Made by a program: the position numbers and the translations under genes. This document shows, piece after piece, positions 5,007-52,204 of a stretch of DNA of 53,349 nt. The DNA is from an uncultured archaeon (GTDB lineage Archaea > Iainarchaeota > Iainarchaeia > Iainarchaeales > GCA-2688035). The notes under the pieces are model-generated. The model was not told where the DNA came from, made no database searches, and saw only the letters and a program-made list of their open reading frames with translations. The DNA is taken from positions 1-53,349 of the forward strand of contig CAYHBD010000029.1 of assembly GCA_964354805.1 (NCBI GenBank), given 5' to 3'. How positions within the stretch are numbered: the stretch's first letter is position 1; every line of letters begins with the position of its first letter.

Positions 5007-5043
5007 TTTTTTACACCAAATTTTCCTTTTCCGAAAAATCAAT

Positions 5044-5856: not shown

Positions 5857-5988
5857 TTTTGCTCAGCCCCAACAGCAATGCAATCAACTTTGTTTCAGCA
5901 TCAATCATTTTCCAACACCTTTTTAACTTTTGCAGGAATCATTTGCTCAGCTCCTTTTTCATTTCACCAGTACTTAATTTTGCCCCAA
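5857..5988 (-). repeat. Spacer made of diverged copies of the aroE start and aroD end
   Basis: From 5908 down, minus strand reads MIDAETKLIALLLG (aroE starts MIDAKTRLIALIG). 5939-5962 reads MKKELSK* (aroD ends MRKELSK*). Confidence 0.85.
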
Positions 5989-8440: not shown

Positions 8441-8483
8441 TTTGCATTTCACCCAAAAGCATTTACATCCGCATTACATTTGC

Positions 8484-9563
8484 TTACCAGCTTACCGACA
8501 CTTCTTCTGGATAGCTGCCCAAGATTTTTACGAAAAGGCACTGTTTTTCCAGCTCGGCAAGGGCTGCCTTCACCTGGACATCTTCCCTAAAGCCCTCGAA
8601 GTCAACGAAGAAAACCACTTCCCACAATTTTTTCTTTGCAGGCCTTGACTCAATCTTTGTCATGCTGATGTTGTGTTCGGCAAAGGCTTTCAGCGCATTG
8701 AACAAGGTGCCTGCCTTGTGCTGGACGCTGAACATTATGCTTGTCTTGTCCTTTCCTGTTGCGCTGTTCTGCTCTTTTCCTATCACAAGGAAGCGCGTTA
8801 CATTATAAGGCGAGTCCTCAATGCTTCTTGCAACAATATTCAGGCTGAATTCTGGCGCAGCCATCTCTGATGCAATGGCAGCGCTGTTTTTTGTTTTTGA
8901 TGCCTGCTCTGCCGCCTTTGCAGTGCTGCTTGCCTCAACCAATTCGGCTTTAGGCAGATTTTTCGCCAGCCATTTTCTGCACTGGGCAAAAGCCTGCGGG
9001 TGGGAGTAAACTGTTTTAATTTCTGAAAGGGAATTTTTTGATAGAAGGCAGTGCTTTATGTCAAGCATTATTTCTGCTGCAATGTTCAGGCTGCTGTCAA
9101 GGAACATGTCCAGGGTGTGGCTTACTGTTCCCTCAATGCTGTTCTCTACTGGAACAACACCGTAATCTGCTTCCTGTTTTTCAACCGAATTGAATACATC
9201 CGAAATGCTGGCATAATCAATCAGCTTTGCGCTTGAGCCGAATTTTTTTAGCGCGGCAGCATGCGTGAAAGTTGTTTTCGGGCCGAGGAATGCTACAGCC
9301 AAGGGCTTTTCAGCAGCCCTGCTCATTGCAATAATCTCCGAGAAAACGCTTTTCACTGATTCTGCTGGAACAGCACCCTTTTTTTTAAGCAGGGCGCGCA
9401 GTATCTCTGCTTCCCTTGAGGGAACGAAAACAGGCTCTCCCTTGCCAGCCTTTTCCTTTCCTGCTTCTTTTGCAAGCTGCAATCTTTCCTGCAGCAAAGA
9501 AAGGATTTTTTCATCAACAACATCAATTTTTTTCCGCGTTTCCTGCAAACCCATAAAATTCAT
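8484..9563 (-). CDS. pheA: Bifunctional chorismate mutase / prephenate dehydratase
   Basis: N-terminal AroQ domain (RKKID..D...REAEIL), GVVPVENS, SHPQAFAQC, NVTRF and ACT-domain KIESRP. Confidence 0.96.
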   Translation of the reverse strand: MNFMGLQETRKKIDVVDEKILSLLQERLQLAKEAGKEKAGKGEPVFVPSREAEILRALLKKKGAVPAESVKSVFSEIIAMSRAAEKPLAVAFLGPKTTFTHAAALKKFGSSAKLIDYASISDVFNSVEKQEADYGVVPVENSIEGTVSHTLDMFLDSSLNIAAEIMLDIKHCLLSKNSLSEIKTVYSHPQAFAQCRKWLAKNLPKAELVEASSTAKAAEQASKTKNSAAIASEMAAPEFSLNIVARSIEDSPYNVTRFLVIGKEQNSATGKDKTSIMFSVQHKAGTLFNALKAFAEHNISMTKIESRPAKKKLWEVVFFVDFEGFREDVQVKAALAELEKQCLFVKILGSYPEEVSVSW

Positions 9564-10564
9564 TTCTCCGTGATTTTTTCCTTTACTTTCATTCCAAAGT
9601 GCCTTCCTGCTTCTTCCACAAAGCCGAGCACTGCATCGCCTTTTTTCAGCTGCACTACTGAAACAGGGCTTCCATCCTGCTTGACCAAGCGAATTGTTTC
9701 AGCATTCTGCAGAACAAGCGAAACGCTTGAACCATTGCTGCTGCCTTCAACCAGAATCAATGGCCTTCTCTCAACCTTTGCCCTGCCGATCACTGCCTGT
9801 TCTGTATTGCCTTTTGAGTCAACAATCAAAACACTGTCGCCAGCTTTCAGTTCACTCAAATAATTTGTTTTTCCATCCAAATTCCTGATGTAAGCGTGAA
9901 CCGCGCCTGCATTCACCCTGAATGGCCTTGGCTCAACGTAAGGATTTTCAATGCTCTCGCTGTGGACAAGGAAAAACCCCGAGCTGCTGTTCCCTATAAG
10001 CATTCCCTGGCCCAAGCACATGTTGGTGCAGGTGTCAATGCAAACCCTGTCACCGCTGCTCAGCTGCTTTATGCTAGTGATTTCAATTTTTGCAAGCTGC
10101 AGCTTTTCGCTTTTGCCCTTTACCTCTTTTGCAGTGTCAATTATCTGCTGCACGTCTGTTGAATTGAGCAAAACTCCAGAAACACCCTTTTCCAAAACAC
10201 CCAAAGCTGTTTTTGCTTCGGCTGAATTGCTTACCTCTGCAATAATGCTGTCTGCCTGGGCAACAAGGTTCTCCAGCGGGATAATGCTCCAGTCACTTGT
10301 TTTCACAATGACTGTTTTTTTTCTTGCCAGCTTTGCCGCCCGCAATTCATCTTCCTTGCTGTTTATCTCCACTTCCATGACATCTCTTCCCAGGCGCATG
10401 GCATCGCTGTCCTCTGCAATAGTTGCAATAACTCCCAATTCCCTTATTTTTGCAGAAAGGCCTTTTGGCGCAACTATGGCGTCAGCTCCCTGCTCCAATG
10501 CGGTTGTAACAACCTTCTTGTTCCACTCGTTCAGCCTTACCCAGAATTTCTTCAATTTCAGCAC
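9560..10564 (-). CDS. aroB': 3-dehydroquinate synthase II (archaeal alternative pathway, MJ1249 family)
   Basis: WSIIPLENLVA, GDRVCIDTC, RPFRVNAGAVHAY, LQNAETIRL and GRHFG motifs. Confidence 0.95.
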   Translation of the reverse strand: MLKLKKFWVRLNEWNKKVVTTALEQGADAIVAPKGLSAKIRELGVIATIAEDSDAMRLGRDVMEVEINSKEDELRAAKLARKKTVIVKTSDWSIIPLENLVAQADSIIAEVSNSAEAKTALGVLEKGVSGVLLNSTDVQQIIDTAKEVKGKSEKLQLAKIEITSIKQLSSGDRVCIDTCTNMCLGQGMLIGNSSSGFFLVHSESIENPYVEPRPFRVNAGAVHAYIRNLDGKTNYLSELKAGDSVLIVDSKGNTEQAVIGRAKVERRPLILVEGSSNGSSVSLVLQNAETIRLVKQDGSPVSVVQLKKGDAVLGFVEEAGRHFGMKVKEKITEK

Positions 10565-10635
10565 CTTTTAATGAATTGATAGCAATTTAGTTATTTTAAC
10601 CATTTTGCTTTTCGCAATGCAAAGCCAATATTTGC

Positions 10636-10728
10636 TTATTTCAGCTCTTTTGCTGCCACAGGCGCATTTTTATTTATTTCAGCTCTTTGCTGCCCCCTGC
10701 ACTTGCTTATTTCAATTCTTTTGCCGCC
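10636..10728 (-). repeat. Three copies of the aroA' 3' end (AAKELK*)
   Basis: ttatttcagctcttttgctgcc (10636-10657), ttatttcagctctttgctgcc (10674-10694) and the genuine ttatttcaattcttttgccgcc (10707-10728). Confidence 0.85.
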
Positions 10729-11495
10729 TTTTCAGCGCTCTCTCCCTCGTGGACAACCTTGCACACTGCTCTTACGAAAGCCGCCGGGTTTTTGTGCTGG
10801 AAGCTGTTCCTGCCCATTGCAACTCCGCTGCCGCCGGCTTGAAGGCTTTCCTCAATCTTTTTGAGGCAATCCAATTCATTGCCTTTGCTTCCGCCTGCAA
10901 TAATCACAGGAACAGGGCAGCCTTTTACAACCTGCCTAAAGCTGTCAATACTGCCGGTGTAGTTTGTTTTGACAATGTCTGCGCCAAGTTCTGCTCCAAC
11001 GCGGGCAGCAAGCTTTACTGCTCCAACATCCTTGTCGTCCTTTACATTGGGGCCGCGGGGATACATCATGGCAAGCAGTGGAACGCCCCACTCATTGCAT
11101 GCTTTTGCTGTTTCACCCAAATCAGCCAGCATTTCTGCCTCTGTTACCGCCCCTATGTTGATGTGAACTGAAACAGCATCTGCACCGAGCTTTAGAGCTT
11201 CCTCTACAGTGCAGACATTTATTTTCCTGTTGGGATCCGGGCCAGCGCTTGTTGAAGCGTTTAAGTGCACTATCAGGCCAATGTCTCTGCCGCTTCCCCT
11301 GTGCCCGCTTGTTACAATGCCCTTGTGCAAAACAATTGCGTTTGCCCCTCCTTCTGCAACCTTTTCAATTGTTGAGGATATGCCCTCAAGGCCCAGTATT
11401 GGGCCATCTGTTATTCCGTGGTCCATTGGGATTATCACTGTTCTGCCGCTCTTTCTGTCCATAATCCTTTCCATCCTGATTTTCTTTCCAATCAT
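10707..11495 (-). CDS. aroA': 2-amino-3,7-dideoxy-D-threo-hept-6-ulosonate (ADH) synthase (DhnA-type aldolase, MJ0400 family)
   Basis: [24 protein letters not shown] and GVAMGRN motifs; adjacent to DHQ synthase II; RBS GGAGGTGA before MIGKK. Confidence 0.93.
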
Positions 11496-11496
11496 T

Positions 11497-11680
11497 TCAT
11501 TCACCTCCAATTTTTTCCTCCAAATTTTTTCTCTTTTTTCCCCCAAATTTTTTGTTTCGATTTTTGATTTTCTTTTTTCCTGCGAGTTTTTGTTTTTTCT
11601 TTTTTTCCCAAAAATTTTTTTCTTTTTTTTTCCTCCGAATTTTTTTTTGTTTTATATTTATGTGTCTCCTTTTTTGTGCC
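11497..11680 (-). repeat. A-rich spacer with about 5-6 degenerate AAAAAATT(T)GGAGG units between the leader and aroA'
   Basis: Sense strand: ...aaaaaaattcggaggaaaaaa...aaaaaatttgggggaaaaaa...aaaaaatttggaggaaaaaattggaggtga. Confidence 0.6.
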
Positions 11681-11725
11681 AGGCCCAAAAACTAAAAATA
11701 AACCCTTTTTTTAGCTTAGGGCCTA
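11681..11725 (-). promoter_or_regulatory. Hairpin beginning in the stop codon of the aromatic leader peptide; U-rich 3' arm
   Basis: Sense AGGCCCUAAGCUAAAAA pairs with UUUUUAGUUUUUGGGCCU, about 16 bp with one internal loop. Confidence 0.7.
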
Positions 11726-11818
11726 CTTAAAATAGAAAAACCAATATCCGAAAAATCCGCTGCTGGCTCGCAAAAAATCGCTTGAAAAGAAGTTACAGTA
11801 TGCATTTGCGAGCTTCAT
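11723..11818 (-). CDS. Putative aromatic-operon leader peptide (31 aa; 8 Phe, 3 Tyr, 1 Trp)
   Basis: MKLANAYCNFFSSDFLRASSGFFGYWFFYFK*. 8 of the last 10 residues are aromatic. Same strand as and directly upstream of the aro/phe operon. Confidence 0.85.
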   Translation of the reverse strand: MKLANAYCNFFSSDFLRASSGFFGYWFFYFK

Positions 11819-11843
11819 ATTGACAATAATTATGGGCTGACGA

Positions 11844-11853
11844 TTTTTAAAAA
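11844..11853 (-). promoter_or_regulatory. TATA box for the aro leader/operon
   Basis: TTTTTAAAAA preceded by purine-rich AAAAAGCAAGG, about 25 nt upstream of the leader ATG (leaderless-mRNA spacing). Confidence 0.6.
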
Positions 11854-11916
11854 CCTTGCTTTTTGGCAACAAAAAGGAATATTAAGCACCTTGGGGTTAA
11901 TTTTAAGCGAGAAACA

Positions 11917-12135
11917 ATGGCAATGAGGAAAAGGTATTCTGTAAGGAAAGGGCGCAGCGGGCATGAGTATGCCCTGGGCGATGTAAGGGAGCCAGGGAAC
12001 CCCAACTGGAGGCCTGAAAGAAGGGCACTGAGAGGGGCCGTGCACAAATCTGTTGAAAGCGGACATGTGGCAGTTGGGCACGCAAGAGACCTCTACCTTG
12101 GGCAAAGGGCAAAAAAAGGCGATAGAAGGCAATAG
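11917..12135 (+). CDS. Small Arg-rich hypothetical protein
   Basis: MAMRKRYSVRKGRSG...QRAKKGDRRQ; first ATG of track ORF 11863-12135. Confidence 0.55.
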   Translation: MAMRKRYSVRKGRSGHEYALGDVREPGNPNWRPERRALRGAVHKSVESGHVAVGHARDLYLGQRAKKGDRRQ

Positions 12136-12197
12136 CTACTAAAGTTCAAGCCGGTTGACGCGCTGAGATACGAGTAAAAAGGTTGGTTTTGGCTCGG

Positions 12198-13223
12198 CTA
12201 TTCCGGCAGCCTTGTCTTTCCAGTGTTTACAATCAGCATTTTTTTGTCTTTGGGAAGCTTTTCCTTCATTTGCAGCATGAGGGCAAGGCCAGCAATTCCT
12301 GATGCTTCACAATTTATTCCCTGCGATTCAGCAATTTCAACTGCCCTGTCCAGATAGCTTTCCCTCACAATGTGGACATTGGAGCCGGGGCCGCAGAACC
12401 CGGCTGACCTGTAAAGCCTGATCCACTGCTCATCGTAATGCACAAAGGGCAGGTGCGGTGAATAGAGCTTGTCTGCATTGCTTTTTGGGTTGTTTGTTGT
12501 TGCCCCAAGAAAATTGCATTTTCTCAGGGTTTCAACATTGCCCTTAAAGCGCGGGTCATGGTTCTCTGTTGAAACCTCTTTTTTGTTTATGTTCAGTATG
12601 TTTTCATAAAGATTGCCTGTTCCAAAAGGGATGAAACAATACTCCGGAGAGCTGTTTATTATCTCATAGCTCATCCAATCAAAAAACCTTGTTGTTGGGT
12701 CAAGAGCCTGGTTTGAGGTTATATCAAGGCCGTTTGGGTTCTCTGTAAGCAACAGTATTTCCTTCCACTCAAACGGCTTCTTGCTCAAATTTGTTTCGAA
12801 TATTTCACATCGCAGCTTCTTCATTGCATCCAGAATTTTGGGGTCAATGCTGAAATCAACCAAAACCTTCAAACCAGGCAAATGGTATTTTCTGAACATG
12901 GTTTGGATTGCAATCGCAGCAGAACCGGAAGAAATTATGGACATCTGGGGCAGCTGGCCTTTGAGCTGGCCATTCTTCTTTGCAAGCAAAAAGTCCCTGT
13001 AGGTAACAACCATTTCCCATGCCATTCTGTCCTTGTGCGTTCCAGTTGGATTAACGCTTTCATCCTTCAGCCAGACATTGGAAAAGCCTGGAACCTTAAT
13101 CTGGGAAGTTGGTGTTGCAGGAAATTTTGGATTGTCGGGGGGAAACTCCGGCCTTTTCGGATCGTTCTCAGAAGCGACAACAATCGAACGCAGTATCTTC
13201 TCTTCTTTACCTGACAAGGCCAT
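12198..13223 (-). CDS. PLP-dependent enzyme, fold type II (threonine synthase/TrpB superfamily), function unknown
   Basis: VWLKDESVNPTGTHKDR (PLP Lys), ISSGSAA, IPFGTGNL, CEASGIAGLA and LIVNTG motifs. Confidence 0.85.
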   Translation of the reverse strand: MALSGKEEKILRSIVVASENDPKRPEFPPDNPKFPATPTSQIKVPGFSNVWLKDESVNPTGTHKDRMAWEMVVTYRDFLLAKKNGQLKGQLPQMSIISSGSAAIAIQTMFRKYHLPGLKVLVDFSIDPKILDAMKKLRCEIFETNLSKKPFEWKEILLLTENPNGLDITSNQALDPTTRFFDWMSYEIINSSPEYCFIPFGTGNLYENILNINKKEVSTENHDPRFKGNVETLRKCNFLGATTNNPKSNADKLYSPHLPFVHYDEQWIRLYRSAGFCGPGSNVHIVRESYLDRAVEIAESQGINCEASGIAGLALMLQMKEKLPKDKKMLIVNTGKTRLPE

Positions 13224-13269
13224 ATAATCCCACTAATGCAAAAAGCAATTTAAAATGCTGCTTTTGGAA

Positions 13270-14634
13270 TTAGAGCGGGGCGTTGGTTTTATCATGTTGC
13301 TTTACTTTCTCTGAGTAGAATTGCCTGCACACTTCGTCTGCAAACAGTGTTCCGAGAAGAGAGAGCTTTATTTTTCCATTGGATTCAAGCAAGCCAAGCT
13401 TTTTTAGCTGCCTTATTTTGGCGCTGATTTCCTTATTATATTTTTTATTCTCAATAGAGTACTTTAAACCAAAAATCACTTTTCTGTGCTCTTTCTCTTT
13501 TTCATCCAGACTGAAGCCCCTTGAAATGGGTAGTTTCCCGCTTTCCAAGGCAGGCAGATATTGGTTTAAGTCAAAACAGTTATAGTACTGCCAGCCATTA
13601 AAGTAAGAATATGCGCATGTTCCAACACCCAAAAGGTCAGTGTTCTGAAACCATTTTTGCCTCTGCTGCTTGTAATCGTAGTCAGCCTTGAGGGCAAACC
13701 AATCCACCGGCTCTTGCTTATAGCCTAACTGCCCCATACCTTTTAGAAACATCAAATGCAGCAAAAGAGCTTTTTTCTCCCCTGGAAGAATTTCGGGATT
13801 TTCCGCATACTGCACCTTCAGGGCTGACTCTGGCTTAACTGAGAGGTGGTAGTTTGTTACAGAGGGTGGCATTAGTTTTTCGATTGCTTTTAAGTCTGAA
13901 TAAATTTTTTCCTCGGAATAATGCGGCAGGCCCCTAATCAAATCAATGTTGATGTTGCTAAAGCCCCTTTTCCTTGCGGTTTCAAACGCATCAATTGCCT
14001 GCCTTGAATCATGCCTCCTGTTTATTGCTTTCAGGGTATTGTCATCAAATGATTGAACGCCAATGCTCAGCCTGTTCACATTGTGCTTTAGCATTAAATC
14101 AATCTTCTCTTTGCTTAGGGTCTCGGGGCTTGACTCAACAGTAAATTCCAGCCCCTGAAGAGGAAATTTCTTGTTCAGAAAACACAACAGGCTTTCCAGC
14201 TGGCTTGTTGAAAGATAAGTTGGAGTGCCGCCCCCAATGTAAACAGATTTCAGGACTGAATCTTTCAACTCTCTTTTATCAAATAGGATGCCAAGCTCCT
14301 TTTTGAGAGCGTTTAGATAGCGGTCAACTGCACCAGCATCTTGGTTCGCATAGATTTTGAAACCGCAGTAAATGCACTTGCCAGTGCAAAAAGGCAGATT
14401 GATATAAAGCGATATTTCCCTTTTCAGGTTCTCCCTATCGGGAAATATCATTTTGCCTTCAACTTGAGGCAGGGCTTTGAGAGGAGGATAAGTAACATTT
14501 ATTGCAGAGGAAGCCTTCATCTCCCTGTCCTTAACAATGCCACTGGCACTGAGCTTGCGCAAAGGAAAAGAATCCAGCAATTCAACAGAATCACGGAGCA
14601 AATCCTGATAGGGGCTCAAACTAGCTCTGGGCAT
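13270..14634 (-). CDS. HemN/HemW-like radical SAM protein
   Basis: LYINLPFCTGKCIYCGF (CxxxCxxC), YIGGGTP, NRLSIGVQSF and NIDLIRGLP motifs. Confidence 0.88.
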   Translation of the reverse strand: MPRASLSPYQDLLRDSVELLDSFPLRKLSASGIVKDREMKASSAINVTYPPLKALPQVEGKMIFPDRENLKREISLYINLPFCTGKCIYCGFKIYANQDAGAVDRYLNALKKELGILFDKRELKDSVLKSVYIGGGTPTYLSTSQLESLLCFLNKKFPLQGLEFTVESSPETLSKEKIDLMLKHNVNRLSIGVQSFDDNTLKAINRRHDSRQAIDAFETARKRGFSNINIDLIRGLPHYSEEKIYSDLKAIEKLMPPSVTNYHLSVKPESALKVQYAENPEILPGEKKALLLHLMFLKGMGQLGYKQEPVDWFALKADYDYKQQRQKWFQNTDLLGVGTCAYSYFNGWQYYNCFDLNQYLPALESGKLPISRGFSLDEKEKEHRKVIFGLKYSIENKKYNKEISAKIRQLKKLGLLESNGKIKLSLLGTLFADEVCRQFYSEKVKQHDKTNAPL

Positions 14635-14737
14635 TGAATATACTTCTGTTTAAAAAGCTTAAATTACTTTCCTAAAGAGCATTAAAAACCAACAAGCAAT
14701 TTAAAACATTGCCCTGTTAATTCTACTGTGGATTGCT

Positions 14738-15763
14738 ATGGCTACTTACAGGGAAGCTGGCGTTGACATCCAGAAAGCGAAGAGGATAAAGGAGCGGATA
14801 AAGCAGCTTGTCAGCTCCACTTTCAACAAGAGTGTTTTGCTTGAAAGCGGGGCATTTGGGGGCGCTGTGGATGCAAGCGCGCTGAAAAAGTTCAGGCAGC
14901 CTGTTCTGGTTAGCAGCGTTGATGGAGTTGGAACAAAAACAAAGATTGCTGTTGCAATGAACAAGTTTGATTCGCTTGGCTTTGACATTGTGAACCACAG
15001 CGCGAATGATATTGTCTGCCTTGGCGCAAAGCCATTGTTCTTTTTTGATTACATTGCAGCAAGCGAACTGAAACAGGAAACAGTGCTTGCGATTGTAGGG
15101 GGAATGAGCAAGGCATGCAGGCAACTTGATATGCCCCTTGTTGCAGGAGAAACCGCAGAAATGCCTGGAGTGTATGAAAAAGGGGAAATTGACATTGCTG
15201 GCAGCATTGTTGGGGCAGTGGAAAAGAAAAAAATCGTGGACGGGAAAAAAATAAAAAAGGGCGATGTTCTAATAGGATTGCCGAGCAATGGATTGCACAC
15301 AAACGGCTATTCGCTTGCGAGAAAGGTTTTTTTTGAGGAAGCGGGAAAAAGCGTGAATGATTTTTTGCCTGAACTGAATGCAACAGTGGGAGAAGCGCTG
15401 CTTGTTCCGCACAAGAATTATTCAAAAATTGTTCTGCAATTGATGCAGAAATTTGATTTGCACGGAATAGCGCACATTACGGGCGGCAGCTTTTACAAAA
15501 ACATTGGCAGGCTGCTACCAGAAGGATTGGGAGGGGAAATAAGCAAAAGCGCTTGGAGCGTTCCGCCATTGTTCAAAGTAATGCAGAAACTTGGGAAAGT
15601 GCCTGAAGAGGACATGTACCACACTTTCAACATGGGCATTGGAATGGTTTTAATTGTTGCAAAAAAAGAAAAGGTAAAAATTCTGCAGGCATTGAAAAAA
15701 ATGGGCGAAAAGCCTATTGAAATAGGGGAAATTGTTGGGGGCGAAGGCGTTACTGTTTCTTAA
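14738..15763 (+). CDS. purM: Phosphoribosylformylglycinamidine cyclo-ligase (AIR synthetase)
   Basis: TYREAGVD, DGVGTK, GETAEMPG, SNGLHTNGYS, AHITGG and TFNMGIG motifs. Confidence 0.97.
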   Translation: MATYREAGVDIQKAKRIKERIKQLVSSTFNKSVLLESGAFGGAVDASALKKFRQPVLVSSVDGVGTKTKIAVAMNKFDSLGFDIVNHSANDIVCLGAKPLFFFDYIAASELKQETVLAIVGGMSKACRQLDMPLVAGETAEMPGVYEKGEIDIAGSIVGAVEKKKIVDGKKIKKGDVLIGLPSNGLHTNGYSLARKVFFEEAGKSVNDFLPELNATVGEALLVPHKNYSKIVLQLMQKFDLHGIAHITGGSFYKNIGRLLPEGLGGEISKSAWSVPPLFKVMQKLGKVPEEDMYHTFNMGIGMVLIVAKKEKVKILQALKKMGEKPIEIGEIVGGEGVTVS

Positions 15764-16829
15764 TCTCTTTCACAATCGCTTGCCCCAGTTCTTTTGTTCC
15801 AACAACAGTTTCGCCTTTTTTTGCGATGTCCGCTGTCCTAAAACCTTTTTCCAGAACAGAGTTAACTGCGGCAAAAATTGCGTCATGCTCTTTCTGCAGG
15901 CCGAAGCTGTACTTGCACATCATTGCTGCTGAAAGAATCTGCGCAATGGGATTTGCCTTGTTCTGCCCGGCAATATCCGGTGCGCTGCCGTGAATAGGCT
16001 CAAACAGGCCGAATTTTTTATCATTCAGGGATGCTGATGGCAGCATTCCAATGCTCCCGGTAATCATGGCTGCCTCATCGCTCAAAATATCGCCAAACAT
16101 GTTTCCTGCGAGAATGACATCAAATTGCTTTGGGTTTTTTACAAGCTGCATTGCAGCGTTGTCAACGTACATGTGCTGCAGTTCAACCTTTGGGTAATTT
16201 TTTGCAATTTCTGTTACAACATTGCGCCACAAAACAGAGGACTGCAAAACATTTGCCTTGTCAATGCTGCAAACCTTTTTGTTTCTTTTCATCGCAGCCT
16301 CGAAAGCAACGAGGGCAATCCTTTCAACCTCCGGTTTTTTGTAAACCATTGTGTCAATGCCCTCTGCTGCACTAAGGCTCTTCGGCTGCCCGAAATAAAC
16401 ATCACCAGTAAGCTCCCTCACAATCAAAATATCGAAGCCCTGTCCGATTATGTCTGAACGCAAAGGCGAGGCTGCTGCAAGCGGCTTGAAAACAATTGCA
16501 GGCCTTAAATTTGCGTACAAATCAAATATTTTTCTCAAAGGCAAAAGCGCTGCCCTTTCCGGTCTTTCATCAACAGGCAGCTTGTCAGCTTCAGGATGCC
16601 CGACAGCACCGAAAAGGATTGCATTGCTCTTTTTGCAAATTGAAAGCGTGGCATCAGGCAGGCAGGTTTTGTGCTTTTTATAAGCTTCAAATCCAACCTG
16701 CGCTTCAGTGAATTCAAAATCAACTGAAAATTTTTCGGCAACCACTTTAAGGACATTAACCGCTTGGGGCATTATCTCCAACCCAATTCCATCCCCCGGC
16801 AGAACAGCGATTTTGAATTTTTTGCTCAT
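15750..16829 (-). CDS. leuB: 3-isopropylmalate dehydrogenase
   Basis: LPGDGIG, VRELTG, IDKANVL, NMFGDILSD and EPIHGSAPDIAG motifs. Confidence 0.97.
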   Translation of the reverse strand: MSKKFKIAVLPGDGIGLEIMPQAVNVLKVVAEKFSVDFEFTEAQVGFEAYKKHKTCLPDATLSICKKSNAILFGAVGHPEADKLPVDERPERAALLPLRKIFDLYANLRPAIVFKPLAAASPLRSDIIGQGFDILIVRELTGDVYFGQPKSLSAAEGIDTMVYKKPEVERIALVAFEAAMKRNKKVCSIDKANVLQSSVLWRNVVTEIAKNYPKVELQHMYVDNAAMQLVKNPKQFDVILAGNMFGDILSDEAAMITGSIGMLPSASLNDKKFGLFEPIHGSAPDIAGQNKANPIAQILSAAMMCKYSFGLQKEHDAIFAAVNSVLEKGFRTADIAKKGETVVGTKELGQAIVKEIKKQ

Positions 16830-16873
16830 TTTTTTGCCACCTGCTTTTTGAATTATTCCGCAATTGAATTAAA

Positions 16874-17368
16874 TTATTTTTTTGCCTCTTGCTTCACATA
16901 TTCCATTAAGCCGCCTAACTTAATTATTTTTTGGATGAAAGGCGGCATTGGCACTGCCTTGAATGATTGCCCTGTTGAAATGTTTCTTATCTCGCCTGCA
17001 GCAGCATCCACTTCAATCTCATTGCCCTGCATTATTTTTTGGCTTGCTTCCTTGCTTTCAAAAATCGGCAGGCCTGTGTTGATTGCATTCCTGTAAAAAA
17101 TCCTGGCAAAGTTTTCGGCAATAACGCATGAGATGCCGGCGTGCTTTATCGCAATTGGCGCGTGCTCCCTGCTGCTTCCGCACCCAAAATTCTTGCCAGC
17201 GACAATAATGTCGCCTTTCGAAATCTTTTTGGTAAATTCGTGGTCAATGTCCTCCATGCAATGCTGGGCAAGAATTGCAGGGTCATCTGTATTCAAATAT
17301 CTGGCAGGAATAATTACATCAGTGTCAACATTGTCCTTGAAACGCCAGGCTTTTCCCTTGAACTGCAT
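16874..17368 (-). CDS. leuD: 3-isopropylmalate dehydratase small subunit
   Basis: DNVDTDVIIPARYL, NFGCGSSREHA and FARIFYRNAIN motifs; start MQFKG. Confidence 0.96.
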   Translation of the reverse strand: MQFKGKAWRFKDNVDTDVIIPARYLNTDDPAILAQHCMEDIDHEFTKKISKGDIIVAGKNFGCGSSREHAPIAIKHAGISCVIAENFARIFYRNAINTGLPIFESKEASQKIMQGNEIEVDAAAGEIRNISTGQSFKAVPMPPFIQKIIKLGGLMEYVKQEAKK

Positions 17369-17370
17369 TT

Positions 17371-18633
17371 TTACTTCAACTCCTTCGGGTGCGAGATTTT
17401 TCCAGCTATGGCAGAAGCCGCTGCAACAGCAGGATTGCTCAAGTACACTTCGCTTTTCGGATGCCCCATTCTGCCGACAAAGTTCCTGTTTGTTGTGCTG
17501 ATTGCCTTTTCGCCTTCGGCAAGAACGCCCATATGGCCTCCGAGGCATGGTCCGCAGGTCGGCGTGCTGAAGGAGCAGCCTGCCCTGACAAAAATTTCCG
17601 CAATTCCTTCCTTAATGCACTGCAGGTAAATCTGCTGCGAACCTGGCAAAATGACGCAGCGCACGTTCGGATGCAGGCTTTTGCCTTTCATTATTTCCGC
17701 TGCAGCCCGCATATCCTCCATTCTCCCATTGGTGCAGCTGCCGATTACCGCCTGGTCGATTTCAATGCCGGATGCTTCTCTTACAGGCACGCTGTTTTCA
17801 GGCAAAGAAGGCAATGCAACCTGGGGCTCGATTGCGCTTGCATCAAAATCGAATTTTTCAACATATTCCGCCCCCTTGTCGCTGCTGTAAGCCTTGAATG
17901 GCTTTTTGCTCACGCTTTTCACGTACTGCAGTGTTTTTGCATCTGGCGCAATTATGCCGTTTTTTCCGCCTGCCTCAATAGCCATATTGCACATTGAAAA
18001 GCGCGAATCCATTGAAAGCGCTTTGATTGTTTCCCCCTGGAATTCCATTGCATTGTATAGAGCGCCATCCACTCCGATCTGGCCGATTGTGTAAAGTATG
18101 AGGTCTTTTCCAAAAACATATGGCTGCATTTTCCCGCTGTAATTGAACAGCATGCTTTCAGGAACCTTGAACCAGAGCTTTCCTAATGCCATTGCAGCTG
18201 CAAGGTCTGTGCTGCCAACGCCTGTTGCAAAAGCGCCAAGCGCCCCAAAAGTGCAGGTGTGCGAATCCGCGCCCACAATTACAGCGCCAGGCAAAGCAAA
18301 TCCCTGCTCGTGGATGAAAACATGCTCTATGCCAACCCTTCCAACCTCAAAGTAATTTGGCAGGCCTTGCTCTCTCGCAAACTGTTTTGTTATCTTTGCC
18401 TGCTCAGCCGACTTTATGTCCTTGTTCGGGGTGAAGTGGTCTGGAAGCATTAAAACCTTTTCCTTGTCGAAAACTTTGGCAACGCCTGCCTGCCGCAATA
18501 CCTTAACCGCAAGCGGCGCTGTTACATCATTTGCAAAGCACAAATCCACTGACGCCTCAATAAGCTCTCCGGGATGCACTTCCTTTTTCCCGCAGTGGGC
18601 AGCAAGGATTTTCTCTGAAATTGTCTGTTGCAT
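17371..18633 (-). CDS. leuC: 3-isopropylmalate dehydratase large subunit
   Basis: GADSHTCT, IGSCTNGR, TCGPCLG and TTNRNF motifs. Confidence 0.96.
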   Translation of the reverse strand: MQQTISEKILAAHCGKKEVHPGELIEASVDLCFANDVTAPLAVKVLRQAGVAKVFDKEKVLMLPDHFTPNKDIKSAEQAKITKQFAREQGLPNYFEVGRVGIEHVFIHEQGFALPGAVIVGADSHTCTFGALGAFATGVGSTDLAAAMALGKLWFKVPESMLFNYSGKMQPYVFGKDLILYTIGQIGVDGALYNAMEFQGETIKALSMDSRFSMCNMAIEAGGKNGIIAPDAKTLQYVKSVSKKPFKAYSSDKGAEYVEKFDFDASAIEPQVALPSLPENSVPVREASGIEIDQAVIGSCTNGRMEDMRAAAEIMKGKSLHPNVRCVILPGSQQIYLQCIKEGIAEIFVRAGCSFSTPTCGPCLGGHMGVLAEGEKAISTTNRNFVGRMGHPKSEVYLSNPAVAAASAIAGKISHPKELK

Positions 18634-18639
18634 AAAAAA

Positions 18640-20271
18640 TCACTTTAAAAATCTCATTCTGTAATCGCGCAAAACCCCGCTTGGCAGTTCTTTTAATTTG
18701 AACTCTTTCTTCCATTTTGCTTTTCTTTTTTTAAGCTCTTTCTCGCTTGCGAGCAAATCAATTCTTTTTTTGTTCAAATCAATTTTTATTGTATCACCAT
18801 CTCGCACAAGAGCAATATTGCCGCCGAGAGCTGCTTCCGGCATTACATGGCCCATGCAGGCGCCCTTTGTCGCGCCTGAGAATCTTCCATCTGTAATCAG
18901 CGCAACGTCATTGTCAAGGCCAAGGCCTGAAATGCCTGCTGTTGGATACAACATTTCGCGCATTCCTGGGCCTCCAATAGGGCCCTCGTAGCGAATTACA
19001 ATAACGCTGGCTCGCTGCACTTTTCCTTTTGCAATGAAAGCGCTTGCCTCTTCCTCTGAATCAAACACAGCTGCCTTGCCCTCAAAAATATGCGGAAATT
19101 CTGCGCTGATTCCGCTTGTTTTTATTATAGCCCCCTTCTCCGCAAGGTTTCCATGCAATACTGCGATTCCGCCTGTTTTGCTGTAAGGATTTTCAATTGG
19201 CCTGATTACTTCCTTGTCCTTGATTTTTGCATTAAGCAGCCTGTCAAACAATTTTCCTTCAACTGTTGCTGTGTTATGTAGCAACCCCTTTAAGCGTAAT
19301 TCAGCCATAACAGCAGGGATACCGCCTGCTGCATGCAAATCATCCATAAAGAAATTTGATGCAGGATCCAAGCGCACCAGGTTTGGTGTGGAATCACTCA
19401 GCTTGTTTATTCTGTTCAAATCAAATTTCATGCCTGCCTCTGCAGCAATGTCTGGCACATGCAGAATTGTGTTAGTGCTTGCGCCGATTGCCATATCCAA
19501 GCGCAGGGCATTTTCAAATGCTTTTTCCGTCATAATATCACGAGCTTTGATTCCTTTTGCAGCTAATTGCACTGCAAGCTTTCCACTTTCAAACGCGATT
19601 TTTTCTTTTTCCGGATCGAGCGCTGCTGTTGTAGCGCACATTGGCAAGGAAAGGCCGAGCGCCTCTGTAACGCATGCCATGCTGTTTGCAGTGTACAACC
19701 CAGAGCAGGTTCCTGCACCAGGGCATGCAGAGCATACAATCTGCTCATACTCCTGCTGTGAGATTTTGCCTCTTTCAAGCCGGGCTTTTGCTTCAAAAGC
19801 TGCTTTTACTCCAATCTTTTTCCCTTTGTAATTGCCAGCCGCCATTGGGCCTGCTGAAACAAACACGCTTGGAAGGTTGAGTCTTGCTGCAGCTTTCAAA
19901 TGCCCTGGAATGTTCTTGTCACAGCCTGCAATGAAAACAATGCCTGAGAAAACGCCGTGCGCTTTGACCATTTCCTCAATGCTGTCAGCAACAGTTTCCC
20001 TGCTTGGAAGAGAGTATTTCATTCCTGCATGGCCCATTGCAATGCCATCGCATATTGCAATAGTGTGGAATCCAAATGGAATTGCGCCTGCTTCCCTGAT
20101 GCCTTTCTTTACTGCTTCACCAAGCTTGCTCAAATGGATGTGCCCTGGCGTTATCTCATTGAAGCTGTTGGCTATGGCAATGAACGGCTTTTGCATTTCC
20201 TCTTTGCTCAAGCCGTCAGCATGCAGCAATGCGGCTGCAGCAGGCAGCTTCTTTACTTCATCTGGTTTCAT
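18640..20271 (-). CDS. ilvD: Dihydroxy-acid dehydratase
   Basis: [37 protein letters not shown] and TDGRFSG motifs. Confidence 0.97.
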
Positions 20272-20280
20272 CAAAACGCC

Positions 20281-21261
20281 TTATTTCCTTTCAAAAAGCG
20301 CCCTTATTTCCCTTCCAACCAATTCAATCTGTTCCTTGCCGTGCTCTTCCCTGAGCTTTGTCAATGTCGGCAGGCCGTTTTTGAATTCGGCAACCCATTC
20401 TTTTGCGAATTTGCCTGATTCAACATCGGCAAGAAGCTTTTTCATTGCTTTCCTGCTTTCCTTTCCAACCACAAGCTTGCCTCTTGTCCTTCCGCCGTAC
20501 TCGGCTGTGTTCGAAACCCGCTTCCACATTAATTCAATTCCGCCCTCGTAAATCAAGTCAACTATTAACTTCAGTTCATTCAGGCACTCAAAGTATGCTA
20601 TCTCAGGAGGATAGCCTCCCTGCACCAGAGTTTCAAATCCTGCTTTGATCAATTCAGTAACACCGCCGCACAAAACGCTCTGCTCTCCAAACAGGTCCGA
20701 GTATGTTTCCTGCTGGAAAGTGCATTCAATCACTCCAGCCCTTGTGTAGCCCATTGCTTTTGCGTATGCAAGCGCGTAATCTTTTGCTTTTCCGCTCGGA
20801 TTCTGGTAAATTGCAATAAGGCCCGGAACTCCAAAGCCCCTTTCGTATTCCTTGCGCTCCTCGCTGCCAGGGCTTTTTGGCGCAACCATTATTACGTCAA
20901 CATCCTGAGGCGGGACAATCTGCTTGAATACAATGCTGAAGCCGTGCGAGCAGCACAAAATTTTTCCTGCTTTCACCTTGGGCGCAATCTCTTTTGCATA
21001 AACAATTCCCTGCACTTCATCAGGCAAAAGAATCTGAATCAAATCGGCTTTTGCCGCCGCATCGGCAATTGGCATTACCTCAAAGCCGTCTTCTGCTGCC
21101 CTGTCATAGCTTGCATCCTTTATTGAGCCGACAATTACATTAAGCCCTGAATCGCGCAAGCACAGCGCCTGTGGCCTGCCCTGGTTTCCATAGCCGATTA
21201 TTGCAATTGTTTTGCCCTTAAGCGGCTCAATTGTTGCATCGCTTTCATGATACAATTTCAT
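20281..21261 (-). CDS. ilvC: Ketol-acid reductoisomerase
   Basis: [30 protein letters not shown] and SNTAEYG motifs. Confidence 0.97.
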
Positions 21262-21303
21262 CCAATCGCCTCCGATTTTCTATTGATTTATGAAAATAAA
21301 ATG

Positions 21304-21440
21304 TTTTTATTCTAATGCAATTTCTTATTTCAATTTTTTAAACCGTTTAATCAGGGCTGCTGCTTAAAATATTTTTATTTCAATGCAATTTCATTTTTTT
21401 GCTTCAATTTTTTTAAACAATTTAATCAGGGCTGCTGCTT
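21304..21440. repeat. About 65-bp imperfect tandem duplication including the ilvH stop region
   Basis: 21304-21365 and 21372-21440 both end in tttaatcagggctgctgctt. Confidence 0.85.
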
Positions 21441-21956
21441 CTGGCCATTGCCGCCCCTTTGCATTGCATTAATGCCAGTCCTGCTTATCTCCTTGATGCC
21501 GTATTTTTTCATCAACTTAAGGAAATTGTCGATTTTTTCAGGGCCTCCGACAATCTCAACCACAACGCTATCTGTGCCCAAATCAAGCACGCTTGCCTTG
21601 TGCAGCTTTGCTATATTAACCAAATCAGCCCTGGTCTTTGGATTGCCTGCAACCTTCACAAGGCAGTGCTCTCTCACAACACTGTGCTTTGGGCTTAAAT
21701 CAATCACCTTAATTGTGTCAATCAATTTGTTCACCTGCTTCTCCAATTGCTCAAGTGTCCTCTCATCGCCAAAAAGGCTGATAACAATGTGCGAAACTCC
21801 GGGAATTGCTGTTTTCCCCACAATGATTGTGTCAATGTTGAAGCCCCTGCTGCTGAACATTCCGCTCAGCTTTGCAAGCACACCAGGCCTGTCCTCGACA
21901 AGTATTCCAATTATGTGCTTCCTTTCCTTTCCCTCAAGCTTTTTTCCCTCAATCAT
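21426..21956 (-). CDS. ilvH: Acetolactate synthase small (regulatory) subunit
   Basis: LVEDRPGVLAK.SGMFSSRGFNI, KQVNKLID and EISRTG motifs. Confidence 0.94.
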   Translation of the reverse strand: MIEGKKLEGKERKHIIGILVEDRPGVLAKLSGMFSSRGFNIDTIIVGKTAIPGVSHIVISLFGDERTLEQLEKQVNKLIDTIKVIDLSPKHSVVREHCLVKVAGNPKTRADLVNIAKLHKASVLDLGTDSVVVEIVGGPEKIDNFLKLMKKYGIKEISRTGINAMQRGGNGQKQQP

Positions 21957-22010
21957 ACGCAACTTCTCCTTTCATCGCCAATCCTAATTATTCCCACACA
22001 ACACAACCAA

Positions 22011-23708
22011 TCAAAAAAGCACTCCCTTGCTTTTAATGCATTGCCCGAACATTTCAGTGTTGCTTGCACCAGCGGCAAACATCGGCAGAATGTTGGCTTC
22101 CTCATTTACAATCACATCAACAACAACTGTTTCATCAGCCTTGCAGGCCTGGCGCAAAGCAGGGGCAATTTCGCTGTCCCTTTCAACTCTGATTCCCTGT
22201 AATCCATATGCATCGGCAACCTTTGCAAAGTCCGGAGTCCTTTTCAGGTGCACTGCGCTGTACCTTTTTCCGAAGAAAAGCTCCATCCACTGCCTCACCA
22301 TTCCAAGATAGGCATTGTTCATTATGACAGGAATTACCTTGATGTTCTCTTCCTTGCACGTTGCCAGCTCCTGAATGACCATTGCAAAACTGCCATCGCC
22401 ATCCAAATCAAAAACATGCGCATCAGGCTTTGCAACCTTTGCGCCTATTGCAGCAGGAAAGCCATAGCCCATTGTTCCTGCTCCGCCGCTTGAAATAAAG
22501 GTCCTTGGCCTTGTTCTTTTCACAAAATGCGCTGCAAACATCTGGTGCTGGCCAGTGCCAGTAACAAGAATGTCTTTATCACCAAGGGCTTTGCCTAATT
22601 CAAACATCAATTTCCTGGGGTCAATCGGATTGCCTGCAATATCAAAGCTGCAATCGCATTCCTTGATGAAGCGCCGCATTTTTTCGCTCCAGGCACTGCT
22701 CTTCTTTGCCTTTATTTTAATTGCGGCAATCAGCTGCAACAGAACAGTTTTTGCATCTCCCACAACAGGCAGGTCTGCCCTTACATTCTTTCCGATTTCA
22801 GCGCTGTCAATGTCAATGTGGATTATTTTCGCATTGCTTGCAAAAGTTTTCAGGTTTCCTGTTATTCTGTCGCTGAACCTGCAGCCGATTGCAATTATCA
22901 GGTCACTGTTTGCAATAGCGTAGTTTGCAACCTTCCTTCCGTGCATTCCAACAACCCCAAGGCAAAGCGGATGAGTTTCTGGAAAACAGCCCTTTCCCAT
23001 AAAGGTTGTTGCAACAGGCAGGTTCACTAACTCGGAAAGCTGCATTAATTCACCGCATGCATTTGCAATCAGGACACCTCCGCCTGCAAGCACAATAGGC
23101 CTTTCAGCTTCAACAACCATTTCAGCAGCCTTTTGAATCTGCTTTGGATGCCCCTGCAAAACAGGCTTGAAGCCTGCTATCCTTAAATCGTTTTCCTCTT
23201 TTGTCACTTCGTTGGATTGAATGTCCTTTGGCAAATCAACAAAAACAGGGCCTGGCCTGCCGTTCAGGGCAATAAGAAAAGCCTTTTTGATTGTGGAGCG
23301 GATTTTATTTGGGTCCCTTATCTGAAAATTGTGCTTTGTAATTGGCATTGTAATGCCCATCATGTCTGTTTCCTGGAAAGCATCGTTTCCAAGCAGCGAG
23401 GTTGGAACATTTCCGGCGAAAGCAACAACAGGAACACTGTCCATGTAAGCAGTCATTATTCCTGTGACCAGATTTGTTGCGCCTGGGCCTGATGTTGCAA
23501 GGCAGACTCCTGCCTTTCCGCTTGCCCTTGCATACCCATCAGCCGCATGCGCAGCCCCCTGCTCGTGCCTAACAAGAATGTGCCTCAAGTCCTTTCTGAA
23601 ATCAAGGAACTTGTCATACAAAGGCAGTACAGCGCCGCCTGGAAAGCCGAAAATGTTGTCAACTTTTTCTTCCAGCAATGCCCTGATTATTGCCTCGCTT
23701 CCATTCAT
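22011..23708 (-). CDS. ilvB: Acetolactate synthase large subunit
   Basis: FGFPGG, RHEQGA, TSGPGATN, GQHQM, TPP motif DGDGSF...NN and LGMVRQW. Confidence 0.97.
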   Translation of the reverse strand: MNGSEAIIRALLEEKVDNIFGFPGGAVLPLYDKFLDFRKDLRHILVRHEQGAAHAADGYARASGKAGVCLATSGPGATNLVTGIMTAYMDSVPVVAFAGNVPTSLLGNDAFQETDMMGITMPITKHNFQIRDPNKIRSTIKKAFLIALNGRPGPVFVDLPKDIQSNEVTKEENDLRIAGFKPVLQGHPKQIQKAAEMVVEAERPIVLAGGGVLIANACGELMQLSELVNLPVATTFMGKGCFPETHPLCLGVVGMHGRKVANYAIANSDLIIAIGCRFSDRITGNLKTFASNAKIIHIDIDSAEIGKNVRADLPVVGDAKTVLLQLIAAIKIKAKKSSAWSEKMRRFIKECDCSFDIAGNPIDPRKLMFELGKALGDKDILVTGTGQHQMFAAHFVKRTRPRTFISSGGAGTMGYGFPAAIGAKVAKPDAHVFDLDGDGSFAMVIQELATCKEENIKVIPVIMNNAYLGMVRQWMELFFGKRYSAVHLKRTPDFAKVADAYGLQGIRVERDSEIAPALRQACKADETVVVDVIVNEEANILPMFAAGASNTEMFGQCIKSKGVLF

Positions 23709-23714
23709 GCAAAA

Positions 23715-23847
23715 TCACGCCTTAATCTTGTTCTGCCTCTTTTTGTTGCCAAAAAACTCATGCCTTTAATTTCCTGCTTTTCTTTGCGGCAAGCGCCCTG
23801 CCAATTCACCCTTTGATCTTACGCTCCTTTTTTGCTGCAAGCGCCTT
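23715..23847 (-). repeat. Three diverged copies of the leuA 3' end
   Basis: Genuine [13 protein letters not shown] (23806-23847); RALAAKKSRKLKA* (23758-23799); LATKR../NKIKA* (23715-23752). Confidence 0.8.
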
Positions 23848-25350
23848 GTTTATTCCCTTAACCAAAGCGTTGGCGCTTGCCATTATCACGTCCTCGTTTA
23901 TTGCCTCGGAATCAAACATGTTTCCTTTTCCGTTCTCAACCCTTACAACAACATCGGCAAGGGCATCAGTGCCGCCGGTGATTGCTTTCAGGTGATACTC
24001 CCGCAAAATAACCCTCTGCGGCAGCATTGACTGGATTGCGTTTGCAACAGCATCAACAGGGCCAACGCCTGCAGCGCTTGCTGTTTTCTTCTTTCCGTCA
24101 ATTTCAAGCGTTACTGTTGCAGTCGGCTTGATTTTGTTGCCTGTGTTAACCCTGACTTCATCAAGCTTTACTCTCTGCTTTTCCTGCACAAGCTGGCCTG
24201 TTACATCTGATGCAATTGCAATAATGTCCTCCTCCAAAACTGTTTTCTGCTTGTCAGCAAGCTGCTTTATTTTTGCATTAACCTGCTGCAGCTGGGCTTC
24301 GCTCAGCCTGAAGCCCAAAGAAGCCAGAACTTGTTTTGCAGCATGCTTTCCGGAATGCTTTCCCAAAACAAGCCTGCTTTTCTTTCCAATTATCTCTGGA
24401 TTCATTATTTCATATGTTTTGCTTGCTGCAATCAATCCGTGCTGGTGAATGCCAGCTTCGTGCGCAAAGGCATTCTCTCCAACAATTGCCTTGTTTCTCT
24501 GCACGGCAATTCCGGTGAAATTTGCAACCATCTGGGAAGCGGGATAAATCTGGCGCAGGTCAATGCCAGTGCTGCAATTGAACAGGTTCTTTCTTACAAA
24601 AATGTTCATTGCAATTTCCTCAAGGGAAGCATTGCCTGCCCTCTCGCCCAATCCATTTATTGTGCACTCAACCTGCCTTGCGCCATTCCTGACAGCCTCA
24701 AGGCTGTTGGCAACAGCAAGGCCAAGGTCATTGTGGCAGTGAACGCTTATTACAACATTGGCAATGCCGGGAACATTTTCTTTCACGCTCTTAATCAGCG
24801 CGCCGAATTCGCTTGGCTGGGCATACCCAACTGTATCAGGAATGTTGATTGTTGTTGCGCCTGCTTCAATCACAGCCCTAACCATTTCAAAAAGGAATTT
24901 TGGCTCTGTCCTGCTTGCATCCATTGCGCTGAATTCAACATCCTTGCAGTAAGAGCAAGCCCTCTTTACTGCTTCAATGCTCATTTTCAATGCTTCTTTT
25001 CTTGAAACCTTAAACTGGTGCTTTAGTTGAATATCGCTGCTTGACATAAAGGTGTGGATTCTGGGCTTTTTTGCATTTTGGATGGCATTCCATGCAACAT
25101 CAATGTCTTTTGGCAATGCCCTTGCAAGAGCGCAGATTGTTGGCCCTTGAACTGTTTCAGCAATCTCTTTCACTGCCTTGAAATCGTCTTCGCTTGCAAC
25201 AGGAAAGCCTGCTTCAATTATATCAACCTTGAGCCTTGCAAGCTGCCGGGCAATGAGGATCTTCTCCCTGTGGGTCAGGGTAGCGCCGGGGCTCTGCTCC
25301 CCGTCGCGCAGGGTTGTGTCGAAAATCGTGACTTTTTCAGCTTTCGCCAT
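23806..25350 (-). CDS. leuA: 2-isopropylmalate synthase
   Basis: [37 protein letters not shown] and LGKHSG motifs; C-terminal regulatory domain GVGPVDA. Confidence 0.96.
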
Positions 25351-25441
25351 TTTTTTCACCTTTGCAAAAAATTATTCACTTTTTCTTCTTTTCCCCTTTT
25401 TTTCACCTTTTTTTTAGCGCCGTGGCTCAACTCATCATTTT

Positions 25442-25477
25442 GCACTCCCAAAATTTGTTCCTTAAAGCCAGGAGTGC
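25442..25477 (-). promoter_or_regulatory. Hairpin 2 nt after the leu/ilv leader stop codon
   Basis: Sense GCACUCCU pairs with GGGAGUGC (8 bp including one G.U). Confidence 0.7.
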
Positions 25478-25479
25478 TT

Positions 25480-25560
25480 TTATCCCAGCAGCAATAGAAC
25501 CAGGACAAGCAAGGCTAAAAGAATCAAGGAATTTTTTGCCAAAAAACTTGCTTTGCTCAT
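25480..25560 (-). CDS. Putative leu/ilv operon leader peptide (26 aa; 11 Leu, 2 Val, 1 Ile)
   Basis: MSKASFLAKNSLILLALLVLVLLLLG*. 13 of the last 15 residues are L/I/V. Directly upstream of leuA on the same strand. Confidence 0.8.
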   Translation of the reverse strand: MSKASFLAKNSLILLALLVLVLLLLG

Positions 25561-25611
25561 CTGGTTCACTGCGAATTCAATTAAAATATATTACAAATTA
25601 TGCATTAAAAG

Positions 25612-25619
25612 TATTTAAA
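25612..25619 (-). promoter_or_regulatory. TATA box for the leu/ilv leader/operon
   Basis: Sense AGAAAGAA-TTTAAATA (BRE plus TATA) about 50 nt upstream of the leader ATG. Confidence 0.5.
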
Positions 25620-52179: not shown

Positions 52180-52204
52180 GAAAACAAGTAAAACGAAAAG
52201 CATT

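Follow-up and report, generated by a model that had tools for sequence, protein, structure and literature searches.

Introduction

Ribosome-mediated attenuation is a textbook bacterial mechanism. Its enterobacterial representatives (pheL-pheA, leuL, ilvL/ivbL, trpL, and hisL) have in common a short 5' open reading frame (ORF) rich in codons for the end product, helices around its stop codon, and a location before an amino-acid operon; in pheL and hisL, the control codons are situated 1–2 codons from the stop. Two unannotated leader ORFs sharing these features are described here from an uncultured archaeon, upstream of the aro and leu-ilv operons of contig CAYHBD010000029.1; this whole stretch of 53,349 nucleotides (nt) will be referred to as the window. 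As judged from comparative sequence analysis, both ORFs are real and conserved across the order Iainarchaeales, and very probably regulatory. The source genome (1.38 Mb, 88.5% complete) is labelled G000, the window being its contig C29, and relatives and loci carry labels beginning with G and L, respectively.

Other described systems resemble further elements of this genome. At the +1 shift of RF2 (prfB), a Shine-Dalgarno (SD)-like motif lies 3 nt 5' of a P-site CUU, and a slow codon occupies the A site. Mycobacterial polycysteine leaders are leaderless small ORFs (sORFs) that coordinate several operons by ribosome pausing, the output being the release of an occluded ribosome-binding site (the “Cys ribulon,” 10.1101/834739). 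As of 2016, no starvation-specific productive frameshift was known (PMC5009743), and in 2021 a single case of programmed ribosomal frameshifting, a -1 shift, was on record for archaeal cellular genes (PMC8211752). In other archaea, the same pathways are controlled by TrpY, Tar (TK0271), and the Lrp/AsnC family (PMC6737238), which are DNA-binding proteins acting at initiation, whereas the Iainarchaeales elements would act in cis and be read by the ribosome. Known control of archaeal amino-acid operons relies on such DNA-binding factors, and no description of ribosome-read leader sensing was found for archaea: a literature search, with most subscription papers lying outside it, yielded nothing on leader-peptide attenuation, or on frameshifts that sense amino acids, in archaea. 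A Met-Trp minigene upstream of trpY of Methanothermobacter was reportedly proposed by Xie and Reeve in 2005, and a candidate RNA motif is reported under the name “leuA-Halobacteria,” although searching did not retrieve it; either could be partial prior art.

Leader ORFs of the aro and leu-ilv Operons

The initial annotation had proposed a common 5' layout for both operons, consisting of a TATA box, a short ORF ending in codons for the products of the operon, a hairpin at the stop codon, an A-rich spacer, and the first gene, and this layout was found on the minus strand as described (Table 1). The aro leader contains 12 Phe, Tyr, or Trp codons in all, eight of them among the final 12, which is the top score for these residues (8/12) among the 683 upstream sORFs of the source genome. 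The leu leader, not included in the program's list of 683, was counted by hand; its 10 Leu/Val codons among the final 12 exceed 9, the highest Leu/Ile/Val value in that list. The claim that two ORFs so matched to their operons are unlikely by chance is thus borne out. The aro transcript would be near-leaderless, given the distance between its TATA-like box and the ATG, unlike that of the leu leader, which has a short 5' untranslated region with an SD. The aro spacer (11496-11680) is composed of degenerate A-rich repeats, and its length varies from ~80 to 230 nt among relatives.

Table 1. Features of the two operons and their leaders in the window, and candidate +1 shift sites on other contigs of the source genome (positions preceded by the contig).
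Feature	Position	Strand	Basis and remarks
TATA-like box, aro leader	11845..11853	(-)	Sequence; ~33-35 nt 5' of ATG; homologues space similarly
aro leader ORF, 31 codons	11723..11818	(-)	Phe/Tyr/Trp cluster ends one codon 5' of stop
9-bp stem within aro leader ORF	11766..11813	(-)	11805-11813 pairs with 11766-11774; folds in G000, G012, G009, and G001 despite sequence changes
aro hairpin, begins at stop codon	11680..11725	(-)	z score -4.1 vs. shuffles; two U5 tracts in 3' arm
A-rich low-complexity spacer, aro	11496..11679	(-)	113/184 A; SD GGAGGTG at 11502-11508
aro operon, 8 genes	3939..11495	(-)	NCBIfam; ADH synthase (first gene, start 11495), DHQ synthase II, pheA, aroA, aroK, aroD, aroE, aroC; order aroA'-aroB'-pheA-aroA-aroK-aroD-aroE-aroC
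TATA-like box, leu leader	25612..25619	(-)	59 nt 5' of ATG
leu leader ORF, 26 codons	25480..25560	(-)	Leu/Val cluster ends one codon 5' of stop; SD-like GTGA at 25566-25569
Alternative 7-bp helix, leu	25467..25489	(-)	ORF end 25483-25489 with hairpin 5' arm 25467-25473
leu hairpin, begins 2 nt past stop	25442..25477	(-)	U4 tract at loop 3' end; covariation in text
A-rich spacer, leu	25351..25441	(-)	47/91 A; terminates in SD GGTGA
leu-ilv operon, 8 genes	15750..25350	(-)	NCBIfam; leuA (first gene, start 25350)-ilvB-ilvN-ilvC-ilvD-leuC-leuD-leuB
Candidate Trp shift site	C2:29615	(+)	Before tRNA-Trp and trpE
Candidate His shift site	C32:13203	(-)	G000 scan
Candidate Cys shift site	C28:54217	(+)	Before cysK
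Candidate Ile shift site	C22:17216	(-)	Before citramalate synthase (cimA)
Four candidate His-codon +1 sites	C32:13203, 12785, 12713, 11594 (locus L079)	(-)	Chain over tRNA-His into hisF; one inside hisA

Conservation Among Relatives

Conservation in orthologous loci was looked for, and in both cases the leaders and their amino-acid bias are kept. A leu-type leader lies 5' of leuA in 32 genomes belonging to about ten families of the order, and none occurs at L014 and L018, where leuA is operon-internal. The ten codons preceding the last one (320 codons, n = 32) comprise 199 Leu, 59 Val, 24 Ala, and 8 Ile, with neither Phe nor Trp, and Leu and Val together make up 258/320. Since Ile is marginal, the leu leader would sense Leu and Val; the matches initially claimed hold for Phe/Tyr/Trp and Leu/Val, and barely for Ile. 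T occupies the second position in 83% of the terminal codons and all six Leu codons are in use, which, together with the lack of Phe and Trp, points to selection on codon meaning rather than on T content or general hydrophobicity. The N-termini vary freely in sequence, ORF length ranges from 21 to 40 codons, and a TATA-like box is situated 27–59 nt 5' of the ATG in most homologues, a position that would place the ORF inside the operon's transcript. Two variants, L157 (G064:C46, before leuA) and L016, have no ATG start that could be found, and the hairpin of L157 starts 5' of the stop codon. A search for related loci returned bacterial leuA loci alone, none with such a leader.

The stem following the stop of the leu leaders has a median z score of -2.1 against dinucleotide shuffles. 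Covariation, a check proposed in the initial annotation, was tested on an alignment of 21 sequences: two-sided changes occur at 7 of 8 pairs and 91.6% of the cells pair, slid controls being lower and 0 of 500 shuffles matching these values, a count that is not a probability, as the structure was picked from the same, kindred sequences.

Among the aro operons, 25 distinct leaders were collected at the homologous position, where the first gene encodes one of four non-homologous proteins (ADH synthase, bacterial-type DAHP synthase, transaldolase, or the product of pheA). Their last ten codons (250) comprise 101 Phe, 57 Tyr, 19 Trp, and 2 Leu, the 177/250 aromatic codons arising partly by construction, since the leaders were chosen by their aromatic tail; informative are the fixed site at operon starts, the Tyr and Trp content, and the near-absence of Leu. 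On this comparison, the aro leader travels with the pathway while the first gene is exchanged. The stems starting at the stop of the 25 leaders show a median z score of -2.1, with values below -1 in 21 of them.

Comparison With Described Leaders

Despite their resemblance in working to the enterobacterial attenuators, the window leaders are not classed among them, because they lack both a terminator of that type and an Rfam match. An intrinsic terminator, i.e., a GC-rich hairpin directly followed by a U-tract, is absent from both window leaders and from most aro homologues, and an Rfam scan of 9 loci (E ≤ 1) gave no relevant match to leader families, T-box, or riboswitches. The archaeal leaders also differ in their TATA promoter, frequent leaderless organization, long A-rich spacer, and combination of three aromatic residues in one leader, and they lack a conserved 3:4 hairpin with its U-tract: a general 3:4 or pseudoknot helix was sought in the leu leaders, and pairing of the loop with a downstream element reached significance in just 5/32, among them some leaders of family f23. 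Of the mutually exclusive 1:2, 2:3, and 3:4 helices typical of bacterial attenuators, the main stem is thus general in the leu leaders, and the 1:2 pairing is significant in 12/32.

With the mycobacterial poly-Cys type they share a leaderless sORF that closes with a series of cognate codons, the aro and many leu leaders having a TATA box 27–35 nt 5' of the ATG and no SD; furthermore, poly-Cys leaders themselves precede cysK in five relatives. They differ from it in that no conserved SD-occluding helix was found by equilibrium folding.

Sensing and Output of the Leaders

It is highly likely that both window leaders are sensors read through ribosome stalling on their cognate codons, a core claim for which their conservation, the reciprocal bias in amino acids, and the covariation of the stems provide strong support. 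With uncharged Leu/Val or Phe/Tyr/Trp tRNAs, the ribosome would dwell on the control codons just 5' of the stop; with charged tRNAs, it would complete the leader and depart, and this difference would set the expression of the operon. The likeliest output would be a conditional premature transcription termination of archaeal type, in which the polymerase would pass a U-tract 10–40 nt beyond the stop. After departure of the ribosome, aCPSF1/FttA or U-tract release would terminate the transcript, whereas a held ribosome would block termination, letting the hairpin shut over the U-tract and the polymerase continue via the A-rich spacer into the operon. We assign a probability of roughly 0.5 to this chain as a whole, in which sensing would be followed by a premature termination conditional on whether a ribosome shields the U-tract. 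aCPSF1 recognises and binds U4 tracts (PMC13675443), and its gene is present in the source genome; mutual exclusion of FttA and a coupled ribosome has been put forward as a hypothesis (PMC11616081, PMC8116511), and the window leaders would offer small natural substrates on which ribosome coupling as a gate for FttA termination could be tested.

Several observations weigh against this chain. A U4 tract starting 10–40 nt past the stop, mostly within the loop or the 3' arm, is found in 23/32 leu (72%) and 15/25 aro leaders (60%), compared with 45% of ordinary stops and 23% inside genes, so that the enrichment over ordinary stops is just modest. Equilibrium folding with simulated ribosome footprints yielded U-tract accessibilities of 0.35 vs. 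0.32, without systematic change. The leader counts are not independent, as the genomes are related, and the hairpin, as judged from sequence, may be either the ON or the OFF structure. The earlier suggestion that ribosome position gates U-tract access for aCPSF1/FttA is therefore left plausible, with FttA encoded in its favor and the modest U4 enrichment and the lack of a folding switch to its detriment.

With the same sensing, the hairpin might instead be an OFF signal, a terminator-enhancing structure forming after the ribosome leaves, whose 5' arm would be masked by a stalled ribosome. Archaeal termination can be enhanced by hairpins, and the geometry of nearly all leu and aro leaders, with control codons ending 0–1 codon before the stop and a stem beginning 0–7 nt past it, would suit this arrangement, as would the U4-8 tracts found immediately 3' of the stem in about 10/32 leu homologues. 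These tracts also restrict to the window the initial statement that the hairpins have no U-tract behind them. We regard an OFF hairpin as rather unlikely, since A-rich sequence, not U, follows the stem in the window and in most aro homologues, and 12/32 leu leaders, mainly of family f1, have a significant alternative helix between their last codons and the 5' arm of the stem (with one compensatory case, L015), which would compete with the stem when the ribosome is absent.

A similarly doubtful place is held by an output at the level of translation or mRNA stability, where the position of the ribosome would set (re-)initiation at the first gene or RNase access. The mycobacterial poly-Cys leaders provide a precedent (10.1101/834739), the pairing of the downstream element with the loop in some f23 leaders could serve such an output, and the +1 frames of the cimA and cysK leaders described below stop on or near the next start codon, pointing to translational coupling in this lineage. 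Nonetheless, the SD of the first gene is ~70–260 nt distant, behind an A-rich spacer of varying length, and its predicted accessibility in the 32 leu leaders is practically equal with the ribosome stalled (0.54) or terminating at the stop (0.52).

It is very improbable that the window leaders frameshift into a frame bridging the spacer: putative +1 sites are used elsewhere in the source genome and the +1 frame of its leu leader is open up to the leuA SD, but both alternative frames of its aro leader close at once, in 15/32 leu leaders the +1 frame meets a stop 5 nt ahead of that of the leader itself (the +2 stops being scattered), and no SD-NNN-CUU motif was seen, nor any conserved site where a shift would enter a productive +1 frame. 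Finally, T is abundant in Phe and Leu codons, the genome contains a few unrelated sORFs rich in Leu, and the leu peptide is superficially signal-peptide-like, yet there is scarcely any likelihood that the ORFs arose by chance in T-rich DNA or represent signal-peptide relics or small membrane peptides with a function of their own, given the reciprocal exclusion of Phe from leu leaders and almost of Leu from aro leaders, the abundance of Tyr and Trp, the spread over synonymous codons, a position before the cognate operon that stays fixed even when the first gene is a non-homologue, and a hydrophobic run of about 8–15 residues ending at the stop.

A Second Module of Putative +1 Shift Sites

The expectation that other amino-acid operons would carry sensors proved right for his, trp, cysK, and cimA, with a module of different design, and no sensor was found directly upstream of the argG genes screened or before lysC/dapB of the source genome. 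At the his, trp, cysK, and cimA genes, a ribosome starved at one cognate codon would slip +1 into a frame that carries on. The sites consist of an SD-like motif, 3 nt, usually CUU, and one cognate sense codon, with no stop codon in the A site. The SD-like motif is complementary to the 16S 3' end of the source genome, its distance of 3 nt from the P-site codon lies at the short edge of the SD spacing of this genome (mode 4–5 nt), and tRNA-Leu(GAG) is present. The his, trp, and cys sites share a P-site CUU, a slow A-site codon, and a productive +1 frame beside a terminating zero frame with RF2 (prfB), Ty1 CUU-AGG, and laboratory “hungry codon” shifting. They differ from RF2 in their A-site sense codon for the product of the operon (His, Trp, and Cys; Ile at cimA), in being chained, and in their archaeal host. 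The likeness to RF2 applies to the his, trp, and cysK sites, not to the two window leaders.

The source genome was scanned for short leaders in which three bases separate an SD-like motif from a codon prone to slippage, the next codon being left free. Four of the 14 matches precede amino-acid genes, all four with the cognate codon next (Table 1); the Cys match alone is an independent prediction, since the his, trp, and cimA sites were already in view when the motif was drawn up.

Trp sites are found in 19/30 trpE loci, several of the remaining loci being without upstream DNA. Their +1 frame is trpE itself in 7 loci and comprises 30–69 codons elsewhere, while the +2 frame closes within 11 codons; in several trp leaders, including that of the source genome, a Trp cluster closes the +1 ORF in the manner of the window leaders. 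The leader of the source genome (C2:29593-29732, plus strand) contains a single-Trp site followed by tRNA-Trp and the start of trpE, and C2 probably joins C7, which carries the remainder of trpE. His sites occur at 19/21 operon starts, frequently in chains of two to four, and their +1 frame is hisG, hisF, or hisD in many loci. In G000, G009, and G001, hisA is split by one extra base exactly at the shift site, and a +1 shift would complete it, the predicted product aligning residue by residue to the intact homologues. Re-initiation at a GTG in the +1 frame was considered for the his sites: it is possible at AGT-GAT, fails at AGG-GAT and at the internal hisA site, and leaves the cognate codon unexplained. 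In the trp and his loci (L100-L136), a cognate tRNA-Trp or tRNA-His gene often separates the leader from the first enzyme gene, a position by which the cognate tRNA may share the control.

The cimA leader (C22:17201-17237, minus strand, in the source genome) is an 11-codon leaderless ORF with one conserved Ile codon, and is absent in G049 and G066. In 16/16 genomes, its +1 frame stays open until a point between -5 and +20 nt relative to the start codon, vs. 5.3 expected from shuffles and 4/16 for the +2 frame. Strong as this pattern is, the cimA site is less secure, because its P-site CGG or CAA re-pairs poorly in +1.

Before cysK, four genomes have a single-Cys site and five relatives (L178-L182) a poly-Cys leader in its place. 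That the two modules take each other's place before a single gene provides the best indirect evidence for an amino-acid-sensing role of both. In three of the four genomes, the +1 frame encodes a protein of 66–72 residues with winged-helix similarity below or near the Pfam cut-offs. In the source genome (C28:54196-54424, plus strand; also L194, L184, L207, and L201), this frame lacks an initial ATG and ends on the start of cysK.

Broadly, a ribosome-read regulon of several operons is probable, in which two modules would be interchangeable, namely stall leaders whose hairpin adjoins the stop (Leu/Val, Phe/Tyr/Trp, and poly-Cys) and RF2-like +1 sites (His, Trp, Cys, and probably Ile), the latter sometimes chained or situated within hisA. 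If true, natural “hungry codon” frameshifting would constitute a regulatory ON switch, i.e., a productive use of the starvation-induced +1 shift, and hisA, hisG, hisF, and trpE of these genomes would be mis-annotated as truncated or broken.

Genomic Context and Other Loci

The genome is placed among the Iainarchaeales/Diapherotrites-like members of DPANN, and the ADH synthase of the window has its nearest named homologues in Candidatus Diapherotrites archaea. Arg-rich or shift-site leaders were absent before argG in 25 loci, argG often not being the first gene there. Three Lrp-type genes are encoded in the source genome; at the end of the window (51769-52203, minus strand), a regulator of the Lrp/AsnC family is situated directly 3' of argG. 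An ilvE-like aminotransferase gene (28859-29773, minus strand) is located outside the leu-ilv operon, and no leader ORF was seen before it; in several relatives the ilvE-like gene adjoins the leu leader on its upstream side.

In the source genome, no leader sensor was found before lysC or dapB. lysC-asd and dapB-dapA have in common a box of ~20 bp just 5' of their TATA boxes (C8:71784 and C30:12540), which suggests that the aspartate/lysine pathway is controlled by a DNA-binding regulator and not by a leader ORF. On contig C7 (15244-15298, minus strand), an ORF of 17 codons, including three each for Thr and Cys, precedes a gene of 417 amino acids, FolC-like by eye, and has the strongest post-stop hairpin of the sORF scan (-24 kcal/mol).

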